DNA from: Methanothrix sp.
GTDB taxonomy: Archaea > Halobacteriota > Methanosarcinia > Methanotrichales > Methanotrichaceae
Length of the DNA stretch: 64,000 nucleotides
NCBI GenBank assembly: GCA_963682135.1
Contig: OY821645.1
Coordinates: 2,240,001-2,304,000 of the forward strand
Direction: 5' to 3'
Part shown: piece by piece, positions 38,024-57,382 of the stretch
Numbering within the stretch: the first letter of the stretch is position 1
Layout: every line of letters starts with the position of its first letter
Notes under the pieces: generated by a model
Seen by the model: only the letters and a program-made list of their open reading frames with translations
What the model was told of the DNA's origin: nothing
Database searches by the model: none
Position numbers and translations under genes: made by a program

Positions 38024-41000
38024 ATGTCATATCGCAATAAGGCGATAGCTTTAGTAATGCTTTTATCGCTGGTTTACCTGCTGGCGGGATTGTCGCTGGG
38101 TGCAGTCGCAGCGCCGCCCAGCCTCACGATAAACCAGCTCGTAACCTCTGAACAGACTGTGACCCTTAAAGCTCCTTCAGGAGATTACTACTACCAATGG
38201 ACCGCTGATACTGGCGGCGCTACCATTGGTCAGGCGACGACGCAGAGTTTTTCGTTTAAAGCTCCCCTGGTAACTCAGGATGAGGGCTCGAAGGCGGTCA
38301 CAATCTCGCTATACATAAGAACCAAAGAAGGAGGTTGTGTCAACCAAACGAGCACCACGATCAATGTCTATTCCCTGCCGGTTTGCGGCATAAGCGGACC
38401 CATATCAGTTGGTCCCTATGAGACTGCCACATACAGTTATTCGGGTGGAACCAGCGGCAAAACGACATTCGTGTGGAATGTTGACGGCAAGAATATCGAT
38501 GGAGCCACCGGGCCAAGTGTTGCCATAGATTGGACCAAATACAGTCTTGTCAATCACACCATCGGCATGACATTGACCAAGGATTACTCTGATGTGGCCC
38601 CCGGTTCAACCAATCCGTTCCGCAGCATAAGCTGTACTTTCCAGACAAATGTGACTTACACCACCGGGATGCAGGTAACCAAGACCCCCTCGGCAGCTTT
38701 TGCAGCGGTAGGCCAGTCAGTTATCTATACCTACACGGTCCAAAATACAGGGACAATAGGCATAAACTCACTGACACTGAGCGATGACAAGCTTGGCACT
38801 CTTACGCCTGCTGCCAAGACGATCCTGCCAGGAGCATCTACAACTGCAACTGCGACCTATATCATAAAAGAGAGCGATCTGCCAGGACCTCTGACCAATA
38901 CAGTAACCGTATCTGGTGTCGAGGACAGAACCAACAAGCCGGTCAGTGCCAAAGCTAATGCTACCGTGGCTCTGACCTATAACGCAGCCTTAAATCTGAC
39001 CAAAGTGCCCTCCTCCGCCACCGCCAAGGTGGGAGATACGGTGACCTACAAGTTCACGGTTACAAATACCGGAAACGTCACAATAAAGGGCTTGAACCTG
39101 ACGGACGATAAGCTGGGAACCATAAAGACCGACAAGACTGAACTTGCTCCGGGAGCTGTTGCAACAGCTTCGGCAACCCATGTCGTATTGGAAAGCGATC
39201 TGCCCGGACCTCTGACCAACGTGGCCACCATAGAGGGCACAGATATCCAAGATCAACCGGTTACGGCGACGGCCACAGCATCGATTGCGCTGACCTACAC
39301 ATCCGGTCTGGCTGTGACTAAGAAGCCATCCTCCAATACTGCAAAAATTGGTGATACTGTAACTTACCAGTTCAGCGTAACGAACAACGGTACGGTCACC
39401 ATAAATGGATTGGCGCTCAATGATGACAAGCTGGGAATCATCACTCTGGACAAGGCATCTCTGCCACCAGGCGAGACCGCCACAGGATCGGCAACGCACA
39501 CCATCATCGAGACCGACCTGCCCGGCCCTCTGACCAATATCGCCACGGCCACAGGCACGGACAGCCAGGGAGTGGCAGTCACAGGCCAAGCAACCGCCGC
39601 GGTCCAGCTTACTTACACTTCCACTTTGCAGGTGACCAAGACTCCATCCACCACAAAGGCAAACGTGGGAGAGACCATAACCTACCAATTCCAGGTTAAG
39701 AACACTGGATCAGTCACTATCAATGCACTGGCTCTGAACGACGATAAGCTTGGGGGCGTCACTCTGGACAGGGAGTCCCTTCTGCCTGGCGAGAGTGCCA
39801 ACGGTACGGCAACACATGTCGTTGTAGAAGGCGATTTGCCCGGACCTCTGACCAATGTCGCCACAGCCACGGGAACAGACCGCCTGGGTACTACGGTTAC
39901 AACAACGGCTACGGCTACAGTCCAGCTTACCTATACCGCTGCTCTGCAGGTGACCAAGATTCCATCTGCGAACACGGCGGCAATCGGTGAGACTGTAACC
40001 TACCAGTACTCCATCGTGAACACTGGAAACGTAACCGTAAATGCTCTGACCCTGACGGATGACAAGCTCGGCGACATAACCCTCAATACCGCCCAGCTGG
40101 CTCCCGGCGGGACAGCCACGGGATCAGCGACGCACACCATCGTCGAGAAGGACCTGCCCGGACCTCTGACCAACATTGCAACGGCTAAAGCAACTGACAG
40201 CCAGAATAAGCCGGTTACAGCAACGGCAACGGCGACGGTCCAGCTTACCTACACGTCCAGCATGAGCGTGACCAAGGTGCCTTCAAGCACAACGGCCGGC
40301 GTGGGAGAACCGGTAACATACACCTACACCGTCAGTAACACGGGCACTATTAACATCACCGGGTTGTCTCTAAGCGACGACAAACTCGGCAAGATAACCA
40401 TAGACAGGACTTCACTGGCCCCCGGAGAGAGCGCAATCGGCACTATTACTTATACTGTGCTCGAAGGCGATCTGCCCGGACCGCTCACCAATATCGTAAC
40501 CGCTACGGCTACGGATAGCTTGAAGCAGCCGATTACTGCAACGGCTACCGCAACAGTTGCTCTGACCTATACGGCCAGCCTGGACGTTGCCAAGGTGCCT
40601 TCAAGCACAACCGCCGTCGTAGGAGAACAGGTAACATACACCTACACCGTTACCAACACGGGTAACGTAACCCTCAAAGGTCTGGCTCTGAGCGACGACA
40701 AGATCGGCACCATAACACCAGCCAAGACCACCATCGCTTCGGGAGAGACAACTACCGCAACGGGAACATACACCGTGCTCGAAGGCGATCTGCCCGGACC
40801 GCTCACTAACGTAGTCACAGTAACGGCCACGGACAGCCAGAACCAGCCGGTCACAAATACGGCAACAGCTACGGTCACCCTGACCTATACGGCCAGCATG
40901 AGCGTGACCAAGGTGCCTTCAAGCACAACAGCCGGCGTAGGAGAACAGGTAACATACACCTACACCGTAAAGAACACGGGTAATGTAACCCTCAATGCTC

Positions 41001-43702
41001 TGGCTCTGAGCGATGACAAGATCGGAACTATAACTCCTGGCCAGACAACTCTCGCTTCGGGAGAGACCACTACTGCAACAGGCATATACACCGTGCTCGA
41101 AGGCGATCTGCCCGGACCGCTCACCAACATCGTCACAGTTTCGGCCACGGACAGCCAGAACCAGGCCGTAACAGCTACGCAGACAGCCACAGTCGCCCTG
41201 ACTTATACCACCAAACTGGAAGTTGCCAAGGTGGCGTCGACGGGAACTGCAGCCGTAGGATCAACCATAACCTATAGCTACACAGTCAAGAACTCCGGAA
41301 CGGTCACCATAAATGGGCTCTCCATGAATGATGACAAGCTCGGCGACATAACCCTGGACGCGAATACACTCGCACCGGGTGCAACTGCCAATGGAACGGC
41401 AACTCACCTCGTAGTGGAAGCCGATCTGCCTGGACCTATTATCAATACGGTAATTGTGACAGGTACAGACAGCCAGAACAATCCTGCCACGGCAACAGCA
41501 ACGGCCACGGTCCAGCTTACCTATACCGCTGCTCTGCAGGTGACCAAGACTCCATCATCCAACACTGCTGCTGTGGGTGAGACTGTAACCTACCAGTATT
41601 CCGTTGTGAACACTGGAAACGTAACCGTAAATGCTCTGACCCTGACAGATGACAAGCTCGGCGATATTACCATGAGTGCCGCCTCGCTGGCTCCGGGAGC
41701 GACGGCCACAGGATCAGCGACGCACACCATCGTCGAGACTGACCTGCCCGGACCTCTGACCAACACGGCAACGGCTAAAGCAACTGACAGCCAGAATAAG
41801 CCGGTTACAGCAACGGCAACGGCGACGGTAACCCTGACCTACACGGCCACGATGGAAGTTACCAAGTCTCCGTCCGCAGCTTCGGCCAGAGTAGGAGAGA
41901 GCATAACCTACACCTACACTGTAAGAAACACGGGAACAGTCTCCATCAAAGGACTGAAGTTGAGTGACGACAAGCTAAAGGAAATCAAAGTAGATAAAGA
42001 TACATTGGTACCGGGCGATACGGCTACCGGAACGGCTACCTACACTATCCTCGAGACGGATCTGCCAGGACCGTTGACAAATGTAGTCACGGTGACGGCA
42101 ACGGATAGCGCCGGGAAGGCAATGACGAGCGAAGCTCGGGCCTCTGTGGAATTAACCTATTCTGCAAGCATGGAGATCGTCAAGACGCCATCCTCCACCA
42201 CGGCCAAAGTGGGAGATACCGTAACCTACTCCTATACAGTGAGGAACACAGGAGAAGTAACTCTCAATGGTCTGGCGCTCACCGACGACAAGCTTGGCGC
42301 TATCAAGATCAACGCCAATACGCTGGCTGCCGGCGAAACGGCGACGGGCACATCAACGCACATCGTAGTTGAGGGCGATCTGCCCGGACCTTTGACCAAC
42401 ATCGTCACAGGTACGGCTACGGACACCCAGGGACAGCCGATTACCGCCACGGCAACAGCAACGGTCGCATTGACCTACACAGCCGCCCTGAACGTTACCA
42501 AGGAGCCATCTGCCAAAACCGCAGCCATCGGTGACACGGTAACCTACAGGTTCACTGTGAAGAACACAGGAAGCGTTACGGTTAACGGTCTGACCCTGAC
42601 GGATGACAAGCTAGGCACCATAAATCCACAACAGGCCACACTTGCACCGGGTGAGACCACGACCGCCTCGATGGATCACATAGTTGTCGAGTCGGATCTG
42701 CCCAGCCCCTTAACCAACGTGGTTACCGCTGCGGCCAATGACATCCTGGGGCAGCCGGTCACATCTACCGCCACTGCTACTGTAGCTCTGACCTACACGG
42801 CAACTGTAGAGATGACAAAGGTTGCATCTCCCACTTCAGCAAAGGTGGGTGAGAAGGTAACTTACACCTACACCATAAGGAATAGCGGAAAGGTCACAAT
42901 CAGCGAACTGGTACTGACGGACGATAAGCTGGGTAGCGTTACTCTGGGCCAAAGATCGGTAGCACCAGGAGGAACGGTAACCGGAAGTGCAACTTACACC
43001 ATCGACGTGAAAGATGTACCGGGACCCATAATCAACACCGCACTACTTGCGGGCAAGGATCCGGCAGGCGGTAGCGTCAGCACCAGGGCCACGGCAACCG
43101 TGACCATAACCAGGGATGCCATTACTCCGACGGTGACATGCGTTGCAGCCAACAGCGACGGCACTTTCACCGCATTCTTTGGCTACAACAATCCCAACAG
43201 CTATGCAGTCACCATAGAGGTAGGAAAGGATAACCAGTTCACGCCACCCCCAGACAGCCGGGGACAGCCCACCACCTTTGAACCGGGAAGCCAGACAGCC
43301 GTCTTTACGGTCGATTCCAAGGGCGAATCTCTAGTATGGCATCTGGAGGGTACCATTGCAGAAGCCAACAAGAACTCAGGCGGATGCTCCATGGCTTCTT
43401 GCGCCTTGGACGGGCCGACTGCCCTCTGCCAGAATAAGGAGGAGACTTACAGCTACACTGCAAAAGAGGATGCAAAGTTCAAGCATAACTACGACTGGTC
43501 CATGGATGACAAACCCCTGGGCTCCGGCAAGAGCATCACCATCTCCGGCAGCAAATTCGAGATGGGAGAGCATAAGCTCAAGCTGAAGGTCAGCAGGAAT
43601 TACAGAGAAAAAGCCTGGTCGAGTGCAGAGTGCAGCATGGCTGTAAAGGTCATACCCGAACCATCCGCGGACATATCCATGGACGAGGAGGGAGGTGACT
43701 AA
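38024..43702 (+). CDS. Giant secreted surface protein with 14 tandem DUF11/DUF7507-like Ig domains
   Basis: Signal peptide; 106-aa (318-bp) repeats L.VTK.PS....VG..VTYTYTV.NTG.V....L.L.DDKLG...E.DLPGPLTN. Confidence 0.9.
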   Translation: MSYRNKAIALVMLLSLVYLLAGLSLGAVAAPPSLTINQLVTSEQTVTLKAPSGDYYYQWTADTGGATIGQATTQSFSFKAPLVTQDEGSKAVTISLYIRTKEGGCVNQTSTTINVYSLPVCGISGPISVGPYETATYSYSGGTSGKTTFVWNVDGKNIDGATGPSVAIDWTKYSLVNHTIGMTLTKDYSDVAPGSTNPFRSISCTFQTNVTYTTGMQVTKTPSAAFAAVGQSVIYTYTVQNTGTIGINSLTLSDDKLGTLTPAAKTILPGASTTATATYIIKESDLPGPLTNTVTVSGVEDRTNKPVSAKANATVALTYNAALNLTKVPSSATAKVGDTVTYKFTVTNTGNVTIKGLNLTDDKLGTIKTDKTELAPGAVATASATHVVLESDLPGPLTNVATIEGTDIQDQPVTATATASIALTYTSGLAVTKKPSSNTAKIGDTVTYQFSVTNNGTVTINGLALNDDKLGIITLDKASLPPGETATGSATHTIIETDLPGPLTNIATATGTDSQGVAVTGQATAAVQLTYTSTLQVTKTPSTTKANVGETITYQFQVKNTGSVTINALALNDDKLGGVTLDRESLLPGESANGTATHVVVEGDLPGPLTNVATATGTDRLGTTVTTTATATVQLTYTAALQVTKIPSANTAAIGETVTYQYSIVNTGNVTVNALTLTDDKLGDITLNTAQLAPGGTATGSATHTIVEKDLPGPLTNIATAKATDSQNKPVTATATATVQLTYTSSMSVTKVPSSTTAGVGEPVTYTYTVSNTGTINITGLSLSDDKLGKITIDRTSLAPGESAIGTITYTVLEGDLPGPLTNIVTATATDSLKQPITATATATVALTYTASLDVAKVPSSTTAVVGEQVTYTYTVTNTGNVTLKGLALSDDKIGTITPAKTTIASGETTTATGTYTVLEGDLPGPLTNVVTVTATDSQNQPVTNTATATVTLTYTASMSVTKVPSSTTAGVGEQVTYTYTVKNTGNVTLNALALSDDKIGTITPGQTTLASGETTTATGIYTVLEGDLPGPLTNIVTVSATDSQNQAVTATQTATVALTYTTKLEVAKVASTGTAAVGSTITYSYTVKNSGTVTINGLSMNDDKLGDITLDANTLAPGATANGTATHLVVEADLPGPIINTVIVTGTDSQNNPATATATATVQLTYTAALQVTKTPSSNTAAVGETVTYQYSVVNTGNVTVNALTLTDDKLGDITMSAASLAPGATATGSATHTIVETDLPGPLTNTATAKATDSQNKPVTATATATVTLTYTATMEVTKSPSAASARVGESITYTYTVRNTGTVSIKGLKLSDDKLKEIKVDKDTLVPGDTATGTATYTILETDLPGPLTNVVTVTATDSAGKAMTSEARASVELTYSASMEIVKTPSSTTAKVGDTVTYSYTVRNTGEVTLNGLALTDDKLGAIKINANTLAAGETATGTSTHIVVEGDLPGPLTNIVTGTATDTQGQPITATATATVALTYTAALNVTKEPSAKTAAIGDTVTYRFTVKNTGSVTVNGLTLTDDKLGTINPQQATLAPGETTTASMDHIVVESDLPSPLTNVVTAAANDILGQPVTSTATATVALTYTATVEMTKVASPTSAKVGEKVTYTYTIRNSGKVTISELVLTDDKLGSVTLGQRSVAPGGTVTGSATYTIDVKDVPGPIINTALLAGKDPAGGSVSTRATATVTITRDAITPTVTCVAANSDGTFTAFFGYNNPNSYAVTIEVGKDNQFTPPPDSRGQPTTFEPGSQTAVFTVDSKGESLVWHLEGTIAEANKNSGGCSMASCALDGPTALCQNKEETYSYTAKEDAKFKHNYDWSMDDKPLGSGKSITISGSKFEMGEHKLKLKVSRNYREKAWSSAECSMAVKVIPEPSADISMDEEGGD
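38650..43110 (+). repeat. 14 x 318-bp coding tandem repeat (boundaries approximate)
   Basis: Recurrent GATCTGCCCGGACC and GACAAGCT motifs at a 318-bp period. Confidence 0.85.
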
Positions 43703-44051
43703 GAAGCTGAGAGTATTCTTCATGCACCTGGTGGCTGCTCCGCCCCAGGTGTAACCATTTTTATTAATTTTATGCACTAAATAAATATAAATTTTTAATC
43801 TGCATTAAATCCTATCCGGAAAAAAGATACTGCCGCCGGATGACGAGCCGTCATTGGCTTCCAGGTTTCAATCCTTGTTTTTGTGGAACTCACCCACGGA
43901 GCTCAAGGGGCCGGATTATCCGATCAATATTATCGCGTTTCAATCCTTGTTTTTGTGGAACTCGCCCCCGGAGTTCATGCAGATTCGTGCAGAAGAGGCG
44001 CACCGTCCGGTTTCCCATGGAAAACCACATAAATCATAATCAGGAGGCGAC

Positions 44052-45377
44052 CTATTCACCTCCCCCGGATGGCCTTTTCTGGCCGGGTTTTGTTATAGAA
44101 ATGGCTCCAAGCTCACGCATAAGAGCATTCTTCCTGCTGCCCTCTTTCAGGTGATAAAAGGCGTCCACAATTGCAGCTACTCTATCCGTCAATTGCTCAT
44201 CCTGAAATGAAGGTGCCTGGCAGGACTTATCCTGACTTGCTCCTCTCGATCTGCATTCACCTTCCTGATACAGCTCCTGGTTGATAAGAAGATGATGAAT
44301 GAGACAGATAAGCTTCCTGGCTACAGCAATAGTGGCTACATTTGGCTCCTTCTTTTTGACCAACCTCTGGAAGAACCTGGAAAGCCGTGTATTTTTCATT
44401 CTTCCGATGGTCTTTGCAGCCTGAACCAGCATAACTCTAATGTACTTGGAACCCTTCTTTGTAATTCCGCATTTTTTCTTTTTGCCCGCAGATTCGCTTT
44501 CTCCAGGATTGAGGCCGCACCATTTAGCGAGTTGGTCAGGTGTCTGAAAATCACGGTAATTTCCAATTTCAGACAATATGGCCGATGCGGATACGAATCC
44601 AATTCCTGGAATTGACATGACGATGGCCAGGTCTTTGCTCTTCTGCTGAATCTTTTTCAGGACCTCATGGCTCAGCTTTTCTATTTTGGATTCGAGATTA
44701 TCAATGAATTCCAGGGCATCTATTAAGAGCATTCTGTTTGTATCATCAAGACTTCTTTCAAGTGCTACCCTAATTTCGTCTTGCTTTTTCCTTATTTTTC
44801 CGGATGGGATGCCTTTCAAGATCTTCTCGATGGACTTCTTTTTTGCCAGACCGTCCAAAATATATCTGCCGGATTTGCAGAATATGTCGTCCATGCAAGA
44901 ACTGAGTTTGATCCCGCATGATGAAAGGTATTTGTGTATCCGATTCCGGAACTGAGTTCGTGTCTTGACATATCCGGACCTGGCTCGAGTTAGAGTCCTG
45001 AGATCTCGGTCTTCATTGGTAAATACCCTAGAGCGCTTGATTTGATTGTTCAGGCAAAGAGATGCAATCCGCTTTGAGTCTTTTGAATCAGATTTGTCGT
45101 TGGGAATAGTCTTTATCTGCAACGGATTGGCAACGATTGTATCTATGGTTTTGCTCAATGCATCATAGATCGGTATCCAATAGACTCCAGTAGCCTCAAA
45201 TGCCACCTGTTCGCATTTGTTGGCTACCAGCCATTTGCGAAATTTCCTAAGTTCAGTTTTCGTTGTCCCAAAATCCATTCGAATCGGTTGAAAATCATCG
45301 CCTGTTATTGTTGCCACGATCAAATCTTTATGGACATCTGCACCGCAAACTCTATCTCTTCGTTTTTTCATATACAT
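44052..45377 (-). CDS. IS110-family (DEDD) transposase/recombinase, copy A
   Basis: GADVHKD, AFEATG.YW, KSD.KD, SIPGIG, GLNPGESESAG (catalytic Ser loop), VARKL; start at 45377 or 45371. Confidence 0.96.
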   Translation of the reverse strand: MYMKKRRDRVCGADVHKDLIVATITGDDFQPIRMDFGTTKTELRKFRKWLVANKCEQVAFEATGVYWIPIYDALSKTIDTIVANPLQIKTIPNDKSDSKDSKRIASLCLNNQIKRSRVFTNEDRDLRTLTRARSGYVKTRTQFRNRIHKYLSSCGIKLSSCMDDIFCKSGRYILDGLAKKKSIEKILKGIPSGKIRKKQDEIRVALERSLDDTNRMLLIDALEFIDNLESKIEKLSHEVLKKIQQKSKDLAIVMSIPGIGFVSASAILSEIGNYRDFQTPDQLAKWCGLNPGESESAGKKKKCGITKKGSKYIRVMLVQAAKTIGRMKNTRLSRFFQRLVKKKEPNVATIAVARKLICLIHHLLINQELYQEGECRSRGASQDKSCQAPSFQDEQLTDRVAAIVDAFYHLKEGSRKNALMRELGAISITKPGQKRPSGGGE

Positions 45378-45604
45378 TTCTGCCTGGTATGGGCAGATGA
45401 TGTTTCCCTGATATGAGATAATTTCCCATACGCGTTCTATGACGCAGTCCCGTATTCGGGGGATCTTGGCTCGTTTCAATCGCGGGATCAGCCGTCCCAT
45501 AAACTTGTCAGCCTTCACTGCCCATAACCACATTTAACGTGAACGGATTACAATATGTGGTTTTCCATCCGTCACGTGTGAGCCTCTGCCTGGGGCGCAT
45601 GGGC
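45378..45604 (-). ncRNA. Candidate bridge RNA region of IS110 copy A
   Basis: About 230-nt 5' non-coding end with hairpins, a 9-nt match to the target repeat (45473-45481) and matches to the donor junction; RNA ends unknown. Confidence 0.6.
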
Positions 45605-46305
45605 GTTTCAATCCTTGTTTTTGTGGAACTCGCCCTCGGAGGATACCGATTTCAGTTATATCAAGTGTTTCACAAAGAAGTTTCAATCCTTGTTTTTGTG
45701 GAACTCGCCCTCGGAGTTTCTGCTATCCTGGCCGTCGCCGGGTAGTTCCTGAGTTTCAATCCTTGTTTTTGTGGAACTCGCCCTCGGAGATGTCTATCCT
45801 CATTCCGGTCCTACGAGCAAAGTCTTGTTTCAATCCTTGTTTTTGTGGAACTCGCCCTCGGAGGCAGAAGATGAAAAGATAGAGTACCGGATGAACGAGT
45901 TTCAATCCTTGTTTTTGTGGAACTCGCCCTCGGAGCAAACTACGGTCGATGCTATCAAGGCCAAGACTGAGTTTCAATCCTTGTTTTTGTGGAACTCGCC
46001 CTCGGAGCCAGGATGAAGCAACTTGACCTTTCCAGCTTCAAAAGGTTTCAATCCTTGTTTTTGTGGAACTCGCCCTCGGAGTCATTTAAGCCACCGCCTC
46101 TGTCCACTCATAGTTCAGTTTCAATCCTTGTTTTTGTGGAACTCGCCCTCGGAGGCCAAGATTACCCTCAAGGATGCAGCAGAGGTGGGTTTCAATCCTT
46201 GTTTTTGTGGAACTCGCCCTCGGAGGGACTGGACAATCAAGGGAAGCGGTGCCGTCACCGCCAGTTTCCCATGGAAAACCACATAAATCATAATCAGGAG
46301 GCGAC

Positions 46306-47631
46306 CTATTCACCTCCCCCGGATGGCCTTTTCTGGCCGGGTTTTGTTATAGAAATGGCTCCAAGCTCACGCATAAGAGCATTCTTCCTGCTGCCCTCTT
46401 TCAGGTGATAAAAGGCGTCCACAATTGCAGCTACTCTATCCGTCAATTGCTCATCCTGAAATGAAGGTGCCTGGCAGGACTTATCCTGACTTGCTCCTCT
46501 CGATCTGCATTCACCTTCCTGATACAGCTCCTGGTTGATAAGAAGATGATGAATGAGACAGATAAGCTTCCTGGCTACAGCAATAGTGGCTACATTTGGC
46601 TCCTTCTTTTTGACCAACCTCTGGAAGAACCTGGAAAGCCGTGTATTTTTCATTCTTCCGATGGTCTTTGCAGCCTGAACCAGCATAACTCTAATGTACT
46701 TGGAACCCTTCTTTGTAATTCCGCATTTTTTCTTTTTGCCCGCAGATTCGCTTTCTCCAGGATTGAGGCCGCACCATTTAGCGAGTTGGTCAGGTGTCTG
46801 AAAATCACGGTAATTTCCAATTTCAGACAATATGGCCGATGCGGATACGAATCCAATTCCTGGAATTGACATGACGATGGCCAGGTCTTTGCTCTTCTGC
46901 TGAATCTTTTTCAGGACCTCATGGCTCAGCTTTTCTATTTTGGATTCGAGATTATCAATGAATTCCAGGGCATCTATTAAGAGCATTCTGTTTGTATCAT
47001 CAAGACTTCTTTCAAGTGCTACCCTAATTTCGTCTTGCTTTTTCCTTATTTTTCCGGATGGGATGCCTTTCAAGATCTTCTCGATGGACTTCTTTTTTGC
47101 CAGACCGTCCAAAATATATCTGCCGGATTTGCAGAATATGTCGTCCATGCAAGAACTGAGTTTGATCCCGCATGATGAAAGGTATTTGTGTATCCGATTC
47201 CGGAACTGAGTTCGTGTCTTGACATATCCGGACCTGGCTCGAGTTAGAGTCCTGAGATCTCGGTCTTCATTGGTAAATACCCTAGAGCGCTTGATTTGAT
47301 TGTTCAGGCAAAGAGATGCAATCCGCTTTGAGTCTTTTGAATCAGATTTGTCGTTGGGAATAGTCTTTATCTGCAACGGATTGGCAACGATTGTATCTAT
47401 GGTTTTGCTCAATGCATCATAGATCGGTATCCAATAGACTCCAGTAGCCTCAAATGCCACCTGTTCGCATTTGTTGGCTACCAGCCATTTGCGAAATTTC
47501 CTAAGTTCAGTTTTCGTTGTCCCAAAATCCATTCGAATCGGTTGAAAATCATCGCCTGTTATTGTTGCCACGATCAAATCTTTATGGACATCTGCACCGC
47601 AAACTCTATCTCTTCGTTTTTTCATATACAT
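46306..47631 (-). CDS. IS110-family transposase/recombinase, copy B
   Basis: Translation identical to copy A. Confidence 0.96.
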   Translation of the reverse strand: MYMKKRRDRVCGADVHKDLIVATITGDDFQPIRMDFGTTKTELRKFRKWLVANKCEQVAFEATGVYWIPIYDALSKTIDTIVANPLQIKTIPNDKSDSKDSKRIASLCLNNQIKRSRVFTNEDRDLRTLTRARSGYVKTRTQFRNRIHKYLSSCGIKLSSCMDDIFCKSGRYILDGLAKKKSIEKILKGIPSGKIRKKQDEIRVALERSLDDTNRMLLIDALEFIDNLESKIEKLSHEVLKKIQQKSKDLAIVMSIPGIGFVSASAILSEIGNYRDFQTPDQLAKWCGLNPGESESAGKKKKCGITKKGSKYIRVMLVQAAKTIGRMKNTRLSRFFQRLVKKKEPNVATIAVARKLICLIHHLLINQELYQEGECRSRGASQDKSCQAPSFQDEQLTDRVAAIVDAFYHLKEGSRKNALMRELGAISITKPGQKRPSGGGE

Positions 47632-47858
47632 TTCTGCCTGGTATGGGCAGATGATGTTTCCCTGATATGAGATAATTTCCCATACGCGTTCTATGACGCA
47701 GTCCCGTATTCGGGGGATCTTGGCTCGTTTCAATCGCGGGATCAGCCGTCCCATAAACTTGTCAGCCTTCACTGCCCATAACCACATTTAACGTGAACGG
47801 ATTACAATATGTGGTTTTCCATCCGTCACGTGTGAGCCTCTGCCTGGGGCGCATGGGC
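47632..47858 (-). ncRNA. Candidate bridge RNA region of IS110 copy B
   Basis: Same sequence as copy A; GTTTCAATC at 47727-47735. Confidence 0.6.
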
Positions 47859-48189
47859 GTTTCAATCCTTGTTTTTGTGGAACTCGCCCTCGGAGATTGA
47901 ACGATAATGTCACGGATGACAGTGGAAATGGTAAGTTTCAATCCTTGTTTTTGTGGAACTCGCCCTCGGAGTTCGGGGCGATATACTGGAGCTTTCCGGG
48001 TCGGAGGGTTTCAATCCTTGTTTTTGTGGAACTCGCCCTCGGAGCCTGGAACGGTCCGGCCAGTGCGGTGTCTGAGCTGTGTTTCAATCCTTGTTTTTGT
48101 GGAACTCGCCCTCGGAGAGGGAACATTTCGTTGAAGCCGACAAATTGATTGAGTTTCAATCCTTGTTTTTGTGGAACTCGCCCTCGGAG

Positions 48190-48400
48190 AGCGGCTTTTT
48201 TTCGTCCTTTTCCCTGTTTCTCATCGTCAAACCGGCCTTTTCTCACCCTCCTTAAATCATGAGTAGAATTTATTAGAGGGCTTATAAATTCATTCCGGCA
48301 GGTGGGCCAAAAAATAGGCTTCCTGCCAAAAAACAGATAATGCATACCTATTTCTGTTTTGCATATGCACCGTGACTTTTGTAAACCTATTTCTCATCTG
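48190..48400 (-). promoter_or_regulatory. CRISPR leader with archaeal TATA box
   Basis: AT-rich non-coding DNA beside the conserved end of the array; minus-strand TTTATAAG near 48281-48289. Confidence 0.7.
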
Positions 48401-48541
48401 CAAATATCCTCTTGGTAGAAAAAGGTTTTTATGGAAAGGCTTCCATAAAACATACTCAATGTGCGAGAGTTCGAATCCAGTGAATTACTCCATGCGCAAG
48501 ATTTTCTTCGCAGATGACTCGACTCTGATCTCAATATATTA

Positions 48542-49216
48542 TTAGCCTTTGTTTTCCGCAAGCTTCAGCCCAACAACCGCCCCGTAACCTCTGGAGACAG
48601 ACTTGCCCAGCCCCAGGAGGTCTGGAATGGCGAAGGTTGTGGTGAACTCGCCTCGTATTCCCGTTACCTTTGTTCCCTTCAGCAGGCAGATCTCGTCCTG
48701 CATCCTGCCAACCTCCAGCCGAATGTGCTCTTTGGCCACGTAGCCCAGCCCCTTGGAGGCGGATAGGATGTTGCCCACCAGTATTCTTCTCAGCAGATCT
48801 CTTCTTTCCTCTCTGTTTGCATTTATGTATTTGGGATAGTTTTCCTGGCTCAGCGCCAACCAGGGCGTGGCGAAACTGTAGCTGTGAATCACCTCAGAGC
48901 AGCCGAACTCCTCACTCTTTAGGGTAATGCCGCGCTCCATGATGCTGTATTTGCTATCGCCCAATTTGATCTCATCGAATTTGTCGTAGATCTCCTTCAG
49001 GACATCTGCCCCCTCGTTGATGCCCAGCACGAGGGGACTATCTTCCAGCATCTTGTACTGGATGAGCGGATACTTGTAGATCAGCTTGTCTGTCACATGC
49101 TGGTGTAGCAGTGCATGCTCATTGAAGCTGGTGGCAAAGAAGCCGCGCAGTTTGGCGGCGTCCCCGTGCATGGGCGCGTCCGAGTGCAGGGTGAGGCGGA
49201 GGATTTTGAGGATCAT
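48542..49216 (-). CDS. cas6: CRISPR endoribonuclease Cas6 (Cas6b type)
   Basis: KLRGFF, IYKYPLIQYK, F.TPWLAL.QENY, LVGNILS..KGL, GLGKSVSRGYG glycine loop. Confidence 0.93.
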   Translation of the reverse strand: MILKILRLTLHSDAPMHGDAAKLRGFFATSFNEHALLHQHVTDKLIYKYPLIQYKMLEDSPLVLGINEGADVLKEIYDKFDEIKLGDSKYSIMERGITLKSEEFGCSEVIHSYSFATPWLALSQENYPKYINANREERRDLLRRILVGNILSASKGLGYVAKEHIRLEVGRMQDEICLLKGTKVTGIRGEFTTTFAIPDLLGLGKSVSRGYGAVVGLKLAENKG

Positions 49217-49240
49217 GGTCGTCAAGGATTTTCGTTTCGT

Positions 49241-49486
49241 CTAAACTTCGGCATTTGTTTCAATGGCAATCGTACGTGCCACTGAACCACAACTTTCAAC
49301 AGGCACTTCTTCGCCGCGGGCAATCATGCAAGCTACGAAGCCTTCAATGGCCTCCCTTGCCATCACCAGCGCCTCTTCAATCGTTCGCCCGAATGTCAGA
49401 CAACCTGGGAGAGATGGTACAATCACCGTGTAAGTTCCATCTTCCTCTTTTCGGAGCAGAACTTCGTAACGCAATGTCTCCATCAT
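49241..49486 (-). CDS. hicB: HicB-family antitoxin-like protein (no adjacent hicA)
   Basis: EEDGTYTVIVPSLPGCLTFGRTIEEALVMAREAIE. Confidence 0.88.
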   Translation of the reverse strand: MMETLRYEVLLRKEEDGTYTVIVPSLPGCLTFGRTIEEALVMAREAIEGFVACMIARGEEVPVESCGSVARTIAIETNAEV

Positions 49487-49598
49487 AGTAGTCTCCTATT
49501 TTATGTTGATGTTGCGGCTTTGCGGTCCTCCCGCGCATGAGCGCGTGCGAGGGCGGGAACGGGGGGGAGGATTTTTAGGAACCTGAGAATCTCCCGGT

Positions 49599-52094
49599 TT
49601 AGATAATCATGGAGCCCCCTCCGGCTCCGTCACGCATGAATCCAGTCTCCTTATCATAATAGTTGGGCAGCTCATCTCTTGAAATGTAGCCCATCTCAGA
49701 TTCATCCGCGACCAGGTTATGAGCGTATTTCTCTGGTGCGGAGATCACGTACTCGCTGAAATCTTTCCTTATAGCCAGTTTCTTTCTCATTTGTTCTTTT
49801 ATGTCCTTCTCCATTTTCAAATCTTGATATTTCTTCCAGATTTCTGCAGCGGTTATATCAATCTCCACAAATACATTTACCTTGGGATAGTCGTCTTCAA
49901 TGAGCTTGAACTTCTTGCTAAGATCTTGGAAAGACAACTGCGCCAGACAGGCCAGGTTTTCTTTTGACTTCTCGTCACCCATGCCACTCTTGACCGACTT
50001 GAAGTACTTGTTATTCAACTCCAAAATAGCTGATTCTCGAATTGAATCATTAATCGGTTTTAGGATGTCCAGGGTTTTGCTCATCAAGAACGGATCGTAG
50101 ATATATCTATAAAATTCTTTTCGATCATCTCTTAAAATAAAAATTGATACCGTGCCCTTTTCTGATTTAGCTGAGTTCCTGTTGCACCTGCCTGCCACCT
50201 GGTTTATGGAGTCCATTGGAGCGAAGTCTCGGTAGACTGTGTGCGCATCGATGTCTACGCCAGCCTCGATCAATTGAGTGCTCACAATGACCTTTCTTTT
50301 TCGTGAAGATTCATCGGCTTTTTTTCCCAAAGACCCCTTGATACTTCGTATCCGCTCCAGCCTCTCTTTTGGAATCACATTTGTAGATAGGTAAAAATTC
50401 TCCGTGTTCTCCAACTCCAGGCTCTTGATAAAATGGTAAACATTGTTGGCCGAGTTAATGGTGTTGAGAACAATCAAGAAATCTTTTTCGGGATTGTTGG
50501 TTAGATCTTCTTGTATGATAGAATTGAATTCCTCCAGGGTCAAAGCCGTCTCAATTCTGGGAATTAGTCTAATCCTATCCAGGTCCCTGAAATACTCTTC
50601 TTTATTCTGAGTTATCTCTTTTATCTCTCCCAATGCCTCATCAAAGATAAGCGGCTGCGTTGCCGTAACGAAGATGACATAGCTATTGAACTTCTCGCAA
50701 AGCATTTTCGTTGCGTCGTGAATCAATTGCCAGTACTGGTGAGGAACTGCCTGTACTTCGTCCAGAATAATTATGGCGTTTGCTAGCTTATTGAATTTGC
50801 GCAGTAACTTATTTCGGTTAGAAAAAAGGGTATAGAAGAACTGCCAGAATGTTGTTACTATTATCTCTGCGTTCCAGCCCTCCAGGAGCAGCAAGCTTTC
50901 GTCTGCCTTATAAAATTCTTCGTCCTTATCCTCAATTTTGTAGTTTACATCTGCCAGATGATGGTGCTTGAGAAGAAGCCTGGAATCCTTAAGTTTTCCC
51001 CCCTGGCTGACTACATCTTCAAAGACATCGTAATTTTGATCTATTATGCTCAGAAAGGGCAGAGCGTAGATTATCCTTGGCGTGAAATCTTTCTTATTCT
51101 TCAATCGGTCTCTCAGCTTTAGGGCAAAAGAAAGAGAAGTCAAAGTCTTGCCGGTGCCGGTTGGGACATTCAACGAGAGAATTCTGTTGTCCAGGTTCCA
51201 ATCCCTAACTCCTATCATTGTATCTTCGTAGATCTGATTCCTGAGATTATTAATATTATTTCTGTCCGAAGTGAACCCTTTCCGTTCTCTATACAGATCT
51301 ACCAGGTCTGCTGGAAGGTCTAAACGATCTGTATCTAGATCTTTGTCTCCTAGCCCCGCGTCGGTCTTGTCTGCATCCAAGAGGGCGGAGTAGAGAAACT
51401 GAGTTATGAAATATGGGTAAAGATCGGTCTTTTCACGAAGATACCTTATCATTCGCTCATCTTTTCTACTGATTTCCTTGCACGCATTTTGCAAAATATA
51501 GTTAGAAATATCATTAATATCGATTTTTAAATTTATCGTTCCTTCTCGAAAAAGCAATGCAAGAATTTGGTTTATCTCGCCTTTATCCATAGACTCAATT
51601 TGCTCTTTCGCTACTTGCAGAATTTTCTCCCTCTCCACATCCACTTCACTTATCTCGCCCATGGCGTTCATGAGGTTTCCGTGATGCTTCTTCACGGCCA
51701 GGAAAGATAATATTGGCAGAAAATTCGCTAATTCACCATTTCTTCCCGATTGGCTAAGGTATTCTTTGATTACCGCGTAAGTAAAGAAAGCAGAGAGCCG
51801 GCCATGATGGGTGCTTTCCTTGGCTTTGAGGGACTTCTTTTTTCGCTCATCTTTCTCAATAATGTATTCCTGGAAAAATCTCGTAGCTTTTCCCAGGTCG
51901 TGCGTTACACCTATGAGATAAGCAGCGTCTGCCAGGAGATCCTTATCATCTATGTTTAGAGATTTGTCTGTTACTGTTTTTCTGCTCAATTGCCCCACTT
52001 TTCTCAAGTGATCCACCAAAAGCCTGATTCGACCATCCTGCGAATCCGGGCGAGACTTGAGCTTAAAGGAATACGATTCGCTCTCGCTTTTCAT
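49599..52094 (-). CDS. cas3: CRISPR helicase/nuclease Cas3
   Basis: HDLGKA, KHHG, DADK, PTGTGKT, LDEVQ, TAT, STQLIEAGVD, QVAGRCNR. Confidence 0.96.
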   Translation of the reverse strand: MKSESESYSFKLKSRPDSQDGRIRLLVDHLRKVGQLSRKTVTDKSLNIDDKDLLADAAYLIGVTHDLGKATRFFQEYIIEKDERKKKSLKAKESTHHGRLSAFFTYAVIKEYLSQSGRNGELANFLPILSFLAVKKHHGNLMNAMGEISEVDVEREKILQVAKEQIESMDKGEINQILALLFREGTINLKIDINDISNYILQNACKEISRKDERMIRYLREKTDLYPYFITQFLYSALLDADKTDAGLGDKDLDTDRLDLPADLVDLYRERKGFTSDRNNINNLRNQIYEDTMIGVRDWNLDNRILSLNVPTGTGKTLTSLSFALKLRDRLKNKKDFTPRIIYALPFLSIIDQNYDVFEDVVSQGGKLKDSRLLLKHHHLADVNYKIEDKDEEFYKADESLLLLEGWNAEIIVTTFWQFFYTLFSNRNKLLRKFNKLANAIIILDEVQAVPHQYWQLIHDATKMLCEKFNSYVIFVTATQPLIFDEALGEIKEITQNKEEYFRDLDRIRLIPRIETALTLEEFNSIIQEDLTNNPEKDFLIVLNTINSANNVYHFIKSLELENTENFYLSTNVIPKERLERIRSIKGSLGKKADESSRKRKVIVSTQLIEAGVDIDAHTVYRDFAPMDSINQVAGRCNRNSAKSEKGTVSIFILRDDRKEFYRYIYDPFLMSKTLDILKPINDSIRESAILELNNKYFKSVKSGMGDEKSKENLACLAQLSFQDLSKKFKLIEDDYPKVNVFVEIDITAAEIWKKYQDLKMEKDIKEQMRKKLAIRKDFSEYVISAPEKYAHNLVADESEMGYISRDELPNYYDKETGFMRDGAGGGSMII

Positions 52095-52773
52095 TCTCTA
52101 CCTCCCAAAGTTCCTTTGCCTTGGCTTTGATGCACTCTCCGTTCCTTTCAAACAGAATCTCGCTGTAGTCAGTTACTTCTCTTGCTTCTCCCATCTCGCC
52201 TGGCATCACTTCTGAGAAGTATTCCTTTCCTTCCTCGAAATCCGGCTCAAGAAGGCATTTACCAGGCACCACGCTATCGATATCCTGGACATCTTCGCCT
52301 GAATTATGTAGCCCAAACTCACCAATGAATTTAAAGTTGCAGATGAGCTCGCTTAGTCCAAGACACGGAGTATACACCGACTGGTGACTGATGAGCAAGT
52401 CTTTAAGCTTTTTATACAATTGCTCATCGGAGTGAGAGAAATAAATTCTATAATTCGGATCTTTGACGAACTCGAATCTGATCTGGGTTCTGTTTTTGAT
52501 CAGATGCATCTTAAATGCGCTCTTGGTATCAATCAGGTTCTCTCCAATCCTCACTTTTTTCACGGGCGCCATAATTTTGCAGCCTATTTGTGCATCAACC
52601 TTAAAGAAGTGCCTGAAATACTCCGCTTTATCCAGACCGACAATGGCCCCGATCAGCCCAGAGAGAGCCGTTCGGGGTGGGAAAGAATAGGTGAGTGGAG
52701 AGCTGGTAGAGTAATTCTTCCTAAAATGGGCGTAGTCCCCCCACACATCGAATACTATTACTCTCTCCGGCAT
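52063..52773 (-). CDS. cas5: Cas5, type I-B (Cas5h)
   Basis: FDVWGDYAHFRK..STSSPLTY.FPPRTAL.GLIGAI.G; YTPCLG. Confidence 0.93.
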   Translation of the reverse strand: MPERVIVFDVWGDYAHFRKNYSTSSPLTYSFPPRTALSGLIGAIVGLDKAEYFRHFFKVDAQIGCKIMAPVKKVRIGENLIDTKSAFKMHLIKNRTQIRFEFVKDPNYRIYFSHSDEQLYKKLKDLLISHQSVYTPCLGLSELICNFKFIGEFGLHNSGEDVQDIDSVVPGKCLLEPDFEEGKEYFSEVMPGEMGEAREVTDYSEILFERNGECIKAKAKELWEVENEKRERIVFL

Positions 52774-52780
52774 CTGGACC

Positions 52781-53809
52781 TCAAAACGCTATTGGCTTTA
52801 TGGCTATGCCGGTAGCTGCTGCCAATCCTTCAATTGGGAAACCGGCCCCTTCTTTGCAGAACTTAATTCTGTCGTCCACGCAAATCTCAATATCCTTGAT
52901 TGAGCCCTTCTCAGCAGCAAGTTTATTGACCAGCTCCGATATCTCCAGCTGGTAATCTATGGTGTCACGAATATTCTCATGAGGCATCTCGGTTACCAGT
53001 TTCAGCATCTTATCCAGATCCCCGATGTGATAACTCTCTTTGCTGTAATTCACCTTAAGGAGCAACCTGGGAACCTGTCCTGCTTTAGATCTGGAAATCA
53101 GGCTCTTGGTTCCATTCCAGATGCCATCCAGCAAAAGTTTTACATCATCTTCTGAGAGACCGGTGTGCTTAGCAGCGTTCTCATTTATTATACCATAGAA
53201 TGATATTAGTGAATATGGCAGAAAATCTTCTTCTCTGAACGTTGCTCTTGTAGATTTATCATCAGATGCAAAAGCTCCTTTACCCCTAAAATGCTTCATC
53301 GAGACACGATGAAGAGATCGACCGATCTTGAACTGTACTGGTCCCGTAAAGGTCAAAGATCCTTTTTCATCTTTTTCTTTATTGGTATCTTTATCGTTTT
53401 CAGTTTTTTTTCCGGGCTTTACTTTAATCTCCAAAGGTATTGTAGCACCAAATAATCTAACATCCAAGCAATTAGCTAAAATTCTATCAGATATAATTTT
53501 TCTTTGTTGTTCAAATGATAATTCTTTGATATCTACAGTTTCATCTTTTAAGAAGTCCATTGCTCTTTTCTTTGCTGTTTGCATATTGCCGCTATCATCC
53601 TTTATTTCTCGAATAAAGATCTCTTTGCCCTTAAAGTCATACAGAAAATCTCGAATAGTTCTCTTTAATCGGACATCTGTTACAATATTTACACCAGTTT
53701 CCTCGTCCATCCTAGGCTTGTTTTCATCCAGAGGATCCCCATTTGGATTTCCATCTCTTATGTCGTAGATGAAAATAATCTCTGACCTGTTCTTTATAGT
53801 TTCGCTCAT
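52781..53809 (-). CDS. cas7: Cas7, type I-B (Csh2)
   Basis: NPNGDP, VTDVRLKRTIRD, DVRLFGA, TGPVQF, SRSKAGQ.PRLL. Confidence 0.95.
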   Translation of the reverse strand: MSETIKNRSEIIFIYDIRDGNPNGDPLDENKPRMDEETGVNIVTDVRLKRTIRDFLYDFKGKEIFIREIKDDSGNMQTAKKRAMDFLKDETVDIKELSFEQQRKIISDRILANCLDVRLFGATIPLEIKVKPGKKTENDKDTNKEKDEKGSLTFTGPVQFKIGRSLHRVSMKHFRGKGAFASDDKSTRATFREEDFLPYSLISFYGIINENAAKHTGLSEDDVKLLLDGIWNGTKSLISRSKAGQVPRLLLKVNYSKESYHIGDLDKMLKLVTEMPHENIRDTIDYQLEISELVNKLAAEKGSIKDIEICVDDRIKFCKEGAGFPIEGLAAATGIAIKPIAF

Positions 53810-55706
53810 TCTTGTGTCTCCCCTTCAATCTCTGGCTCATCTTCTGTTGAATTCTTGAACAACTTATGCAAATCCATTCCCAAAACAAAATAGAAGCTTA
53901 GCTCGTCATCTCCTTCTTTCCAATTTATTCCAGACGAGACAAAGTGATTTGCAATGATCTCTTCCAGTTGCCGATAATAATTCTTGTCGTACTCTTCCAG
54001 CTTAATTTGAATTTTTGGAAGGAGTCTCTTGATCAGTGCTTCATTCATCTTCAAGCCATGTAATTTATTGCGAAATGGAGTTGCATTTTTGTCCCTCCAC
54101 TGTATGTTAAGGAGCTTCTGAGTCAATACCCCTTCCAAAAAGGTCGCCTTCTTAGAATCGCTATTGAAGAACGCCTTATTTGCTTCGAAGAACCTCTCAA
54201 TACGTAGCTCTAATGGGAGGCTTTCCAGCTCTTCGATGCGAAGAACCTCACGTTCCTGTTCATTCATGTCTTTCATCTCCGCGTTCTTTGCTTTGAAAAG
54301 AATTAGCTTCTCTATGTAGTGCAAGAGCAAGAAGCCATTCAATGAAGTTATCTTAGTAGAATAACCCTTTATGAACGCCTCTCTTACCTTACTCATTATA
54401 AAATCTATCAACAAATAATAGCTGATTTGATCTCCAACAAATATCTTGTCAACCATTTCCAAGAATATTTTATCGAAAGTTCTATTTTTAGATTCGGATG
54501 GGAAGAATCGTCTCAAAACTCCAAAATTAAAAACTAATTGGTGGTTTTCCCTCTGACCTTCGCCTAATATTAAATCATTATAAATTTTGAATATCTCATC
54601 CACTTTTTCTTTGGCTTTGAAAAGTGCTCTTAGTCTTGATGGAAAAATTCCCTCAATTAAAAGGAGGATTCTATATGATGATTGCTCCTTCTTATAAAAT
54701 ATCAAGCTGTTGCTAAAGAAATCTTTTTCATCTTTGACAGCATCACAGCATCAATGATCTTATACTCGTCAGAAGTTATCATGTTCTTATCATCACGATT
54801 TAGTTTTAGCTCCCGTTTTTGTTCCTTCTTACCCAGGATGCTCAATACCTCTTTAAGGAGCTTTTTATCATCTCCTTTAAACGTTATTTTTGGCACGAGG
54901 AGATATCTGAAGCCGTAGAAGCTAAAGTCAAGGTTTTCTTCGATGTACTTCTTTCCAACTTCCAGACGCGTGGCACAATCGAAACATACTGGTGTATTCT
55001 TCCAGGATTCATTGACATCAAATCCACCTGCAATAAATCCAGGCTTATCAAAGGTGTGGAAAGTCCAGGGAATAGCGAAGCCATATACTTCATCTTTGAC
55101 CCCTTTGCAGACTGAGCAGGCAGCATTTTTTCCCCGCGATTCTCCATGAGTCTTCTTAAGAAAATACTTGTCCTTACCCATTCGAAGCAAGATCTTTTCA
55201 AAAATCGGACATTTGCTAAGATAAGAATAGTCTTCGCCATTTTCAAAACCCAGAGTGATAATGGCGTTATCTTTCGAGTCTTTTTCGGAGTATTCCTCTT
55301 GTAGTCCTGCCAAAATTTTATCTCTCTGATCATTGATTGCGATTTTCATCTTTTTGAGGATCTCCTTTTCTTCCTCAGAAATATCATAGCTATCATAATT
55401 CTCGAACCATTTTAGGAATCTATTCTGGAAGGTCTTTTCTAAATTGCCCGCCAATTTGCTCGTGGGTGTCGCGTCAGTGCCATTTGGAGCACCTTTTTTA
55501 TATAAATATAAATTAAAATCTGTCTTAAACTCGTCTCGTATAACACGGCTAAAAGAATACTCCCCGTCCTTTTCGCATAATAATACTAATAATACCCATT
55601 TATATTTTCCATTGCTATTGGGATTCTCGATATATGTGGAAAGCGAATCTACTCCCACACTATTCTTTTGGATGTAGTCCCCGATTTTGCTTACCGCTTC
55701 AATCAC
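53806..55706 (-). pseudogene. cas8b: Cas8b (Csh1) split by a frameshift into 54702-55706 and 53806-54705
   Basis: CSVC, FHTFDKPGF, PVCFDC, FPSR, FLEGVL...LL.IQ, FYFVLG; the 8-bp tandem duplication at 54738-54753 breaks the frame. Confidence 0.9.
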
Positions 55707-55722
55707 CCGAAATCACCATCAA

Positions 55723-56388: not shown

Positions 56389-56395
56389 TTCGCCC

Positions 56396-56621
56396 TCAGA
56401 ACACCTTGGTAATCGTCATTCCCGCCACCAGCTCCCGGTCAAATCCTGCCCCGATTAGCTTGATCTTTTCAAAGCAGTCCTCGCACATGGGAAAGACGTA
56501 GACGGAATCCGATTCATCGATGACCGCCTCGCACTCCAGGGCCAGAGAGTCGGACTGATTACGGTTCAAATCGCCCAGAAAGGCGCTCTTCTGCCGCCCG
56601 GAACAGGCCGTAGTTTTTGCA
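56396..56621 (-). pseudogene. cas2: 5'-truncated, frameshifted second copy of cas2
   Basis: QKSAFLGDLNRNQSDSLALECEAVI...ITKVF; lacks the YDI N-terminus. Confidence 0.88.
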
Positions 56622-56669
56622 TAAGCAAAATTATGCGGCGAGATGATACGGGTTTTCAACCGATAGCAT

Positions 56670-56828: not shown

Positions 56829-56900
56829 TTAAACCCCTGGTCATGCATCTGCTTTCGATCTATATAATTCTTTAGACAAATGGATTTTTGTAGAATATAA

Positions 56901-57197: not shown

Positions 57198-57382
57198 CCT
57201 TTCTTCTCCTTAAATTTCTACGGTTAGATGCGAGATCAGACGACCACAGCAAACCATACAGCTTGTTGATAGATCCCCGGCGACATATAGTTATGCCGTA
57301 GAACGAAAGTAATCTGGGAGGGGCACGATTCATCCCGCCTTTGAAATGGCAGGAATTCTCTGTCCCCGTCTTCATTTCGCCC

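Follow-up and report, generated by a model that had tools for sequence, protein, structure and literature searches.

The insertion sequences (IS) that come closest to the element described here are IS621 and the IS1111 elements, for both of which guide RNAs have been reported. In the IS621 bridge RNA, the order is a stem, a left target guide (LTG), a stem-loop and a right target guide (RTG) (Hiraizumi et al., 2024, PMC11208158), and the loop strand that base-pairs to the DNA's bottom strand is the 5′ one (Durrant et al., 2024, PMC11208160). In IS1111 elements the non-coding region is usually situated downstream of the gene, with rare upstream exceptions, and the sub-terminal repeats measure 11-13 bp (Siddiquee et al., 2024, PMC11187229), all of this as given in the parts of these three papers drawn on here. 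[quoted passage not shown] The 64,000-nucleotide stretch analyzed, positions 2,240,001 to 2,304,000 of the forward strand, is referred to below as the window, and coordinates are given in its numbering. We propose that a 9-mer in the non-coding region of this element, reading GATTGAAAC on the transposase strand and GTTTCAATC on the plus strand, very probably acts as the guide by which an RNA-guided insertion sequence of the IS110 family recognizes its target, and that it is matched to the conserved end of the CRISPR repeat. The proposal is based on sequence identity, on covariation between guide and flank, between guide and element end and within stems, and on insertion statistics; from these we infer transcription, RNA-DNA pairing and a crossover after GAA. 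The sequence-only reading of the window had already put forward a guide in an IS110-family RNA encoded upstream of the recombinase and aimed at the repeat end, and its main claim is now supported by flank covariation, covarying stems and insertions in arrays.

The element shares with IS621, as far as the cited sections describe it, a DEDD recombinase (PF01548, PF02371), a non-coding region upstream of the gene, a predicted 5′ stem-loop followed by internal-loop modules, a putative 9-nt left-flank guide of top-strand sense with a shorter right-flank complement, a second module for its own ends, a G-containing linker before each guide and, possibly, handshake-like letters after the core. It differs from IS621 in that the strand order is reversed, the 5′ strand of the loop complementing the top strand and the 3′ strand matching it (PMC11208160). 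A covarying basal stem around both modules, a very distant protein, an archaeal host and a CRISPR repeat end as natural target set it further apart. The order of the guide strands in the loop is that described for the IS1111 seekRNAs, and short sub-terminal inverted repeats are likewise present; unlike in the IS1111 elements described, however, the non-coding region is upstream and the sub-terminal repeats measure ~6 bp rather than 11-13 bp (PMC11187229).

Two further systems connect transposons with CRISPR arrays. Cyanobacterial Tn7-like transposons are likewise small, devoid of cargo, prefer CRISPR arrays and occur in several copies per genome, but in the account drawn on here they use TnsD/TniQ proteins, whereas the present element would use a 9-nt guide in its own RNA gene together with a DEDD recombinase (PMC11837452). 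For IS1000A/B of Thermus thermophilus, also of the IS110 family, the database entry has 32 bp in common with the CRISPR repeats of the host, which the authors read as IS segments recruited into CRISPR, no guide being proposed in the sections of that paper cited here (PMC6352166). This 32-bp identity, which we compared by description only, would be expected if the reference copy had been cut out of an array. No paper describing an IS110 or IS1111 guide RNA aimed at CRISPR repeats was found, and the supplementary tables of PMC11208160, PMC11187229 and 10.64898/2026.10.21.760802 could list such targets.

The element and its 9-mer

Copies A (44010-45604) and B (46264-47858) both lie on the minus strand, are offset by 2254 nt, measure 1,595 bp each and are 100% identical to each other. 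Their ends were fixed by comparison with a third identical copy (L003) of the same genome, located outside any array between GGATATGAAAC on its left and TCTAATTC on its right. On the transposase strand, the two array copies are preceded by a repeat reading up to GGATTGAAAC, extend from GCCCATGCG to CCATGGGAAAC and are followed by a spacer; the repeat upstream is in each case intact, ending in AAGGATTGAAAC on the minus strand, and the spacer downstream is of full length. The two copies are found behind different repeats and in front of different spacers and thus represent separate, independent insertions. The only letters in common at the junctions are GAAA(C), with no true target duplication (the lineage of copy L041 shares GGAA), and the position of the crossover is ambiguous in both copies within the shared GAAAC.

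The gene for the DEDD recombinase (transposase) occupies 44052-45377 (minus strand) in copy A, encoding 441 aa from the ATG at 45377, and 46306-47631 (minus strand) in copy B; an alternative conserved start of the copy A gene may be the ATG at 45371. The protein matches the Pfam domain DEDD_Tnp_IS110 (PF01548, 2.3e-21) followed by Transposase_20 (PF02371, 3.1e-24), both above the curated cut-offs, and its residues D14, E61, D97, D100 and S296 are aligned with D11, E60, D102, D105 and S241 of the IS621 transposase 8wt6, the chain numbering of which is offset by 2. Overall similarity to 8wt6 is weak (E = 4.6e-6, with domain-level E-values of 2.7 and 0.021). We assign the element to the IS110 family in the broad ISfinder sense, with which its domains, catalytic residues and short common core all agree. 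Between its 5′ end and the ATG lies a non-coding region of ~227-233 nt, after the stop codon one of 42 nt, and the sub-terminal inverted repeats of ~6 bp read CCCATG/CATGGG. We also would like to point out an AT-rich stretch, TGATTATGATTTATGTGG, near the right end (44021-44051, minus strand), ~20-35 nt before the 3′ end of the element; in a circular form it would be upstream of the left end, where one may speculate that it could act as a junction promoter.

The 9-mer is found at 45473-45481 in copy A (minus strand, nt 124-132 of the IS), in the same sense as the left flank, and at 47727-47735 in copy B (minus strand). GTTTCAATC has 18 exact matches in the window, sixteen in CRISPR repeats and one in each IS copy, compared with a chance expectation of 0.87 in 64 kb (the largest count among shuffles was 4, and none of 100 reached 18). 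The matches in the repeats correspond to their first 9 nt on the plus strand, that is, to the last 9 nt on the crRNA (CRISPR RNA) strand. The conserved last 8-9 nt of the repeat are presumably what is commonly called the crRNA 5′ handle. Both the coordinates of the 9-mer and its identity with the repeat end, as first noticed in the sequence-only reading, were borne out, and both junctions also agree with its observation that the 9-mer equals the sequence directly left of the insertion point.

Covariation of guides with flanks and ends

Relatives of the element were taken from one-genome-per-species sets, 392 genomes of the class being searched, and 47 copies with a readable 5′ end formed the sample for covariation, related copies not being independent samples. 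That the 9-mer should vary together with target flanks among homologues had been suggested as a check, and this is what was observed: when the left-flank 9-mer of each copy was compared with that copy's own 5′ region, it matched best at the homologous slot, situated 44-47 nt ahead of an invariant GAACGCG, in 44 of the 47 copies. The match at the slot is 9/9 in 17 copies, 8/9 in 20 and 7/9 in 5, and the three misses (L003, L043 and L059) are copies at poorly matching sites. The slot holds 18 distinct guides, each differing at several positions (20 groups were computed, two of which are off-by-one registers of GATTGAAAC and TGCGGAAAC). At the five variable positions, guides match their own flanks at 3.8 positions on average, versus 1.23 for cross-lineage pairs (n = 570), and none of 100,000 permutations reached the observed sum of guide/flank matches. 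Within the window's genome, a paralogue of 67% DNA identity has TCCCTAAAC in the slot and a left flank that reads ACTCTAAAC.

A second strand of the predicted target loop follows the other flank. In the distant lineages L040, L031, L033, L041 and L042, the 5′ strand is reverse-complementary at 9/9 positions to the final letters of the element together with the right flank, and in six further cases at 8/9; the mean match is 6.77 with the own flank (n = 39), compared with 4.89 with the flanks of other lineages (n = 1,308). In the lineage of the window this strand reads GACAAGUUU, and at CRISPR sites only its GUUU is matched, pairing with AAAC; the match is longer at a few sites outside arrays, such as ACTTGCA in L019. 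Since GACAAGUUU complements AAAC plus a preferred right flank, and the match is extended at a few non-array sites, the ideal target would read GATTGAAACTTGT, with a variable spacer being tolerated.

A third segment follows the element's own end. Directly after the hairpin P4 (see below) and a G-N linker, the donor segment UAUGGGAAA corresponds to the 3′ end of the element, CATGGGAAA, and in every variant the donor 9-mer changes together with that end (GGGAAA, AGGAAA, AGAAAA, AGGAAT, GCGAAA, GTGAA, GGCAA and GGTAA). As to a donor-side partner for the 5′ end of the element, distant lineages show, by eye, a discontinuous CUC..AUG match to CATGAG.

Predicted structure of the guide RNA

Four helices were tested on an alignment (A1) of 38 distinct 5′ regions. 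The predicted core of the guide RNA extends over 45388-45526 in copy A and 47642-47780 in copy B, both on the minus strand. A basal stem, P1, formed by UAUGGGCAG with CUGCCCAUA, encloses the target module as well as the donor module. The target-binding loop (45468-45513, minus strand) is closed by an outer stem, P2 (GGCU at 45510-45513 with AGCC at 45468-45471), and contains an inner hairpin, P3 (GGGA at 45495-45498 with UCCC at 45484-45487). The loop 5′ strand at 45499-45509 (minus strand), GACAAGUUUAU, is the reverse complement of AAAC plus the preferred right flank, and the putative target guide forms the 3′ strand, after P3 and a G-N linker (45482-45483, minus strand). The donor module consists of the invariant hairpin P4 (45431-45446, minus strand; GCGUC...GAACGC) and, following it, the donor guide AUGGGAAA (45422-45429, minus strand), which equals the 3′ end CATGGGAAA at 44012-44020.

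Taken together, the four helices are paired in 97% of cells, with seven pairs changed on both sides, and none of 500 shuffles equalled this. P1 is paired in 99.7% of cells and has compensatory changes in three pairs, and P2 and P3 have two pairs each changed on both sides, with 92-93% of cells paired; in a control with slid partners, pairing falls to 27-50%. All of P1-P4 were recovered independently by RNAalifold. P2 and P3 contain eight G-U cells, where the other strand would have A-C mismatches, which favours a transcript of transposase sense. An antisense transcript was also considered and is less likely, given the G-U pairs and the geometry of the guide.

The sequence-only reading had placed the 9-mer between complementary arms of two kinds; the arms GGCT/AGCC correspond to P2 and are supported by covariation, but the arms TCCCG...CGGGA were rejected, as the partner of TCCC is an upstream GGGA, a pairing backed by compensatory changes, and distant homologues lack the CGGGA partner. 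That reading had also taken the 9-mer for an IS621-like left target guide. An IS621-like model that puts the guide on the loop's 5′ side was dropped, since the guide sits on the 3′ strand after the inner hairpin, in the order of IS1111-type seekRNAs. Finally, UAUGGGCAG was discarded as a candidate right-donor guide because it forms the covarying stem P1 with CUGCCCAUA.

Proposed mechanism

According to our model, the non-coding region upstream of the DEDD recombinase gene would encode a bridge or seek RNA, the basal stem of which encloses two modules. The 5′ strand of the target loop, GACAAGUUU, would be complementary to AAAC and the right flank on the top strand, and the 3′ strand, GAUUGAAAC, having the sense of the left flank, would pair with the bottom strand, while in the donor module AUGGGAAA would recognize the element's own 3′ end. 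The circularised element, in which the right end-left end (RE-LE) junction would read ...CCATGGGAA directly followed by ACGCCCATG..., would be joined by recombinase and RNA to any DNA reading (G)ATTGAAAC. As arrays supply a large share of the matching sites, the element would land precisely at the boundary between repeat and spacer.

The position of the crossover may be approached through the L041 lineage, the junctions of which are unambiguous (GTGCGGAA followed by ACCCTCATG on the left, CATAGGAA followed by TGTGGGA on the right). Its target guide is CUGCGGAAAC and its donor guide UAUAGGAAUU; each ends with letters of the other partner, in a way reminiscent of the handshake idea in the literature. 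If the window element follows this homologous lineage, its crossover would occur after GAA, and the final AC of the guide would match the element's own first two letters. The guide would thus not end at the core, as previously suggested, but run two letters into the element.

Insertions in arrays and at other sites

Among genome copies with the GATTGAAAC guide, 10 of 18 are located in CRISPR arrays, at the 3′ end of repeats of three clearly different types, and the remaining eight are at single sites where the sequence is (A/C/T)ATTGAAAC or a poorer match. Of the 29 copies with other guides, none shows a flank that recurs in its locus. All seven perfect 9/9 flanks among the GATTGAAAC-guide copies are CRISPR repeats. 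In addition, a junction scan of metagenome contigs gave at least 120 loci, which together with three viral contigs amount to 129 junctions among the matches listed; the pattern required TTGAAAC, so that poorly matching sites are left out, and contigs from a single study may duplicate one another. Among these listed matches, 87 of the 129 junctions are in five CRISPR repeat families (63 of them with the repeat body at least three times in the same locus, up to 61), 40 are at single sites, one is in the guide of another copy and one has a flank too short to classify. Insertions at the repeat/spacer boundary are always co-oriented with crRNA transcription. In the window's own genome two of three copies are in an array, which is too few events for significance.

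Every GATTGAAAC-guide genome copy examined from the 392 genomes belongs to the genus of the window, and those relatives for which a title is public come from Methanothrix or Methanotrichaceae assemblies; no taxonomy is attached to the metagenome contigs. The suggestion that the guide could reach arrays in many hosts thus finds no support in the hosts seen so far, which are of one genus only.

These numbers also allow a reading in which the guide is real but the CRISPR insertions are a by-product, any (A/G)ATTGAAAC site being selected without specialisation for arrays. Arrays hold 50 of the 132 ATTGAAAC sites and 16 of the 39 GATTGAAAC sites of the window's genome, and because of this baseline an array share such as 10 of 18 needs no factor beyond the guide. 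Moreover, eight of the 18 genome copies and 40 of the 129 listed metagenome or viral junctions are at single-copy sites, and three other arrays of the genome with 8/9 matches are empty. However, among occupied sites the guide is matched at 9/9 only in CRISPR repeats (7/7), it is unchanged across copies with recombinases 77-100% identical, five different repeat families are used among the matches listed, and the right-flank guide is in effect reduced to AAAC, which fits a target with variable spacers after it. We regard the by-product reading as possible, though on the evidence rather improbable.

Guide DNA as a possible target and miniature elements

The DNA encoding the guide is itself found at junctions. 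In L056, a complete copy behind a repeat abuts with its 3′ end the remainder of another copy exactly after the guide (...CCATGGGAAA followed by CAGGCCAAGATCCCC). The same copy-to-copy junction is present in a contig of the RNA-library run X1, and a reciprocal junction (...GATCCCGAGATTGAAAC followed by GCCCATG) is present in L097. The nested junction region of L056 spans about 3204-4900, in minus orientation. Such junctions would be produced either by insertion into the guide's own DNA or by a donor-by-internal-target deletion. In L013, a contig of a Methanothrix sp. metagenome-assembled genome with a protein 97% identical, the 5′ region has an internal deletion that reaches from the guide GATTGAAAC to the ATCATCTGCC placed after a GGGAAAC; the deletion is bounded by two GAAAC words, one target-like and one donor-like. 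Both the guide-DNA junctions and the L013 deletion are as one would expect if GATTGAAAC alone suffices as target.

Among the matches listed, miniature elements account for 35 of the 129 junctions, for example in the metagenome loci L069, L072, L083 and L092; they measure 83-86 nt, apart from two outliers (71 and 90 nt). Lacking both guide region and gene, they are built from ~45 nt of left end and ~40 nt of right end (GCCCATG...CCATGGGAAA) and occupy ATTGAAAC sites, many of them between CRISPR repeats; 23 of the 35 among the matches listed are in arrays. The three miniature elements on viral contigs (L188-L190) each lie beside a single repeat-like sequence. The window's genome has one miniature element, at G000:C1:2839547 (plus strand), which is of the paralogue lineage and is flanked by the paralogue's target.

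One may go further and see in this lineage, together with its 83-86-nt miniatures, a specialist array parasite that exploits crRNA biogenesis. In such a scenario, the guide being equal to the last 9 nt of the repeat, every insertion would be co-oriented with the array; the leader promoter would transcribe guide RNA and recombinase within the precursor crRNA, and the guide RNA would receive a defined 5′ end from a Cas6b cut placed 8 nt ahead of the junction. The host would pay for each insertion with one spacer and, in addition, with a polar loss of older spacers. The guide DNA, being itself a complete target, would explain tandem, nested and internally deleted copies. We consider this extension doubtful and put it forward tentatively.

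The guide-DNA junctions bear on another explanation, that the 9-mer acts as DNA, as a protein-binding or regulatory site (a target mimic for transposition immunity, or a recombinase site), with no guide RNA involved. The guide-encoding DNA does serve as an insertion or recombination site, and no RNA was observed, the RNA-library data being contigs and consisting of fragments of a relative only. The compensatory stem changes and G-U pairs, on the other hand, point to a folded single strand of transposase sense; each of two loop strands varies with one of the flanks, and another segment varies with the end of the element; and the same RNA logic has been published for the family, as far as the cited parts of PMC11208160 and PMC11187229 describe it. 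We therefore judge a role as a DNA site very unlikely.

Remaining alternatives and points against a guide

The RNA segment AUUGAAAC might, alternatively, mimic the crRNA handle and act as a decoy for Cas proteins, that is, as an RNA anti-CRISPR. The repeat ends in the same 8 nt, and the element lives in arrays. However, just 9 nt are in common, the repeat hairpin is absent, and the 17 other guide variants hold non-CRISPR sequences in the slot that track their flanks, so that we give little credence to a decoy. Least credible of all is that the 9-mer has no function, having arisen by chance or been acquired by the element as a fragment of a repeat: it is indeed short and the element adjoins repeats with the same letters, but a third copy outside arrays carries it too, so that it belongs to the element and is no captured repeat scrap, homologues with other flanks hold their own flank's 9-mer at the same slot, and chance is contradicted by the 0.87 matches expected in 64 kb as well as by the permutation test.

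Several observations weigh against the 9-mer as a guide aimed at the repeat end. The copies compared are akin to one another, so that the samples are not independent. The recombinase is distant from that of IS621 (E = 4.6e-6) and the loop order is reversed, so that the mechanism is transferred by analogy. The lineage of the window does not fit the CUC..AUG match as a second donor guide, alignment A1 being inconsistent there. Perfect GATTGAAAC sites stand empty at 20 places outside arrays in the window's genome, as do 14 of the 16 repeats, and the imperfect site GGATATGAAAC is the one taken by the third copy; occupancy is thus not predicted by the sequence match alone. A single-sequence fold of the 233-nt 5′ region is unexceptional (z = -1.80; 12 of 200 shuffles fold as well), and a scan of 43000-49000 with Rfam (E ≤ 1) gave only CRISPR-DR7 and no known RNA family over the 5′ region of the IS. 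Finally, the sole RNA-library run with related sequence (word share 0.06) consists of contigs, with fragments of a relative 90-97% identical, and may contain DNA. Note also that, in the single-sequence fold, the local pairings around the donor guide are not all retained in the alignment-based structure.

The CRISPR-Cas locus

The array that hosts both copies extends over 43865-48189 (minus strand), with its leader side at about 48190, and comprises 16 repeats, CTCCGAGGGCGAGTTCCACAAAAACAAGGATTGAAAC, at a spacing of 71-76 nt, interrupted by the two insertions. The repeats match the Rfam family CRISPR-DR7 with 30.4-34.5 bits, under the gathering score of 37. On the leader side, at 48542-58782 (minus strand), are the cas genes cas6b, cas3, cas5, cas7, cas8b (TM1802 family, two open reading frames), cas4 and cas1, and with this adjoining gene set the locus is assigned to type I-B CRISPR-Cas. 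The cas8b homologue is split, at 53809-55706 (minus strand), into two adjacent open reading frames, one of 334 aa covering profile positions 1-323 and one of 299 aa covering positions 334-601, which may reflect a frameshift or a natural split. The two leader-distal repeats (43865-43973) are degenerate, reading CACCCACGGAG and CGCCCCCGGAG instead of CGCCCTCGGAG; degenerate repeats are usual at the old end of an array. An open reading frame of 1,892 aa (38024-43702, plus strand) terminates ~160 nt away from the array's distal end.

Elsewhere in the genome, three more arrays (G000:C1:69774-70436, 75282-76402 and 2949564-2950418) have repeats ending in AATTGAAAC or CATTGAAAC, which match the guide at 8/9 positions, and contain no IS copy. 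An identical 49-nt context, ATCCGTAAGGATCGGGAACGTCCCGGATTGAAAC followed by ATCTTAGTAGGGACA, occurs three times, at G000:C1:827057 (minus strand), 2880936 (plus strand) and 2994475 (plus strand); it belongs to a different repeated element, within which a perfect GATTGAAAC site stands unoccupied.

Significance

RNA-guided recombinases of the IS110 family are under development for genome writing, and here a naturally programmed target would be directly readable and biologically meaningful, which makes the element relevant to researchers working on bridge recombinases as well as on CRISPR biology. The 18 guide variants on one scaffold would constitute a natural reprogramming series, and the mixed architecture, with an upstream region of IS110 type and a strand order of IS1111 type, bears on how both architectures are related. 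For the annotation of arrays it matters that elements of 83-86 nt between repeats can pass for long spacers. With this element, the array-targeting Tn7-like transposons of cyanobacteria would be joined by a second class that works by another mechanism, and two RNA-guided systems would be linked, the guide of one being aimed at the repeat of the other. If specialisation on arrays were true, an RNA-guided immune system would be worn down from inside by a transposon that is itself RNA-guided.

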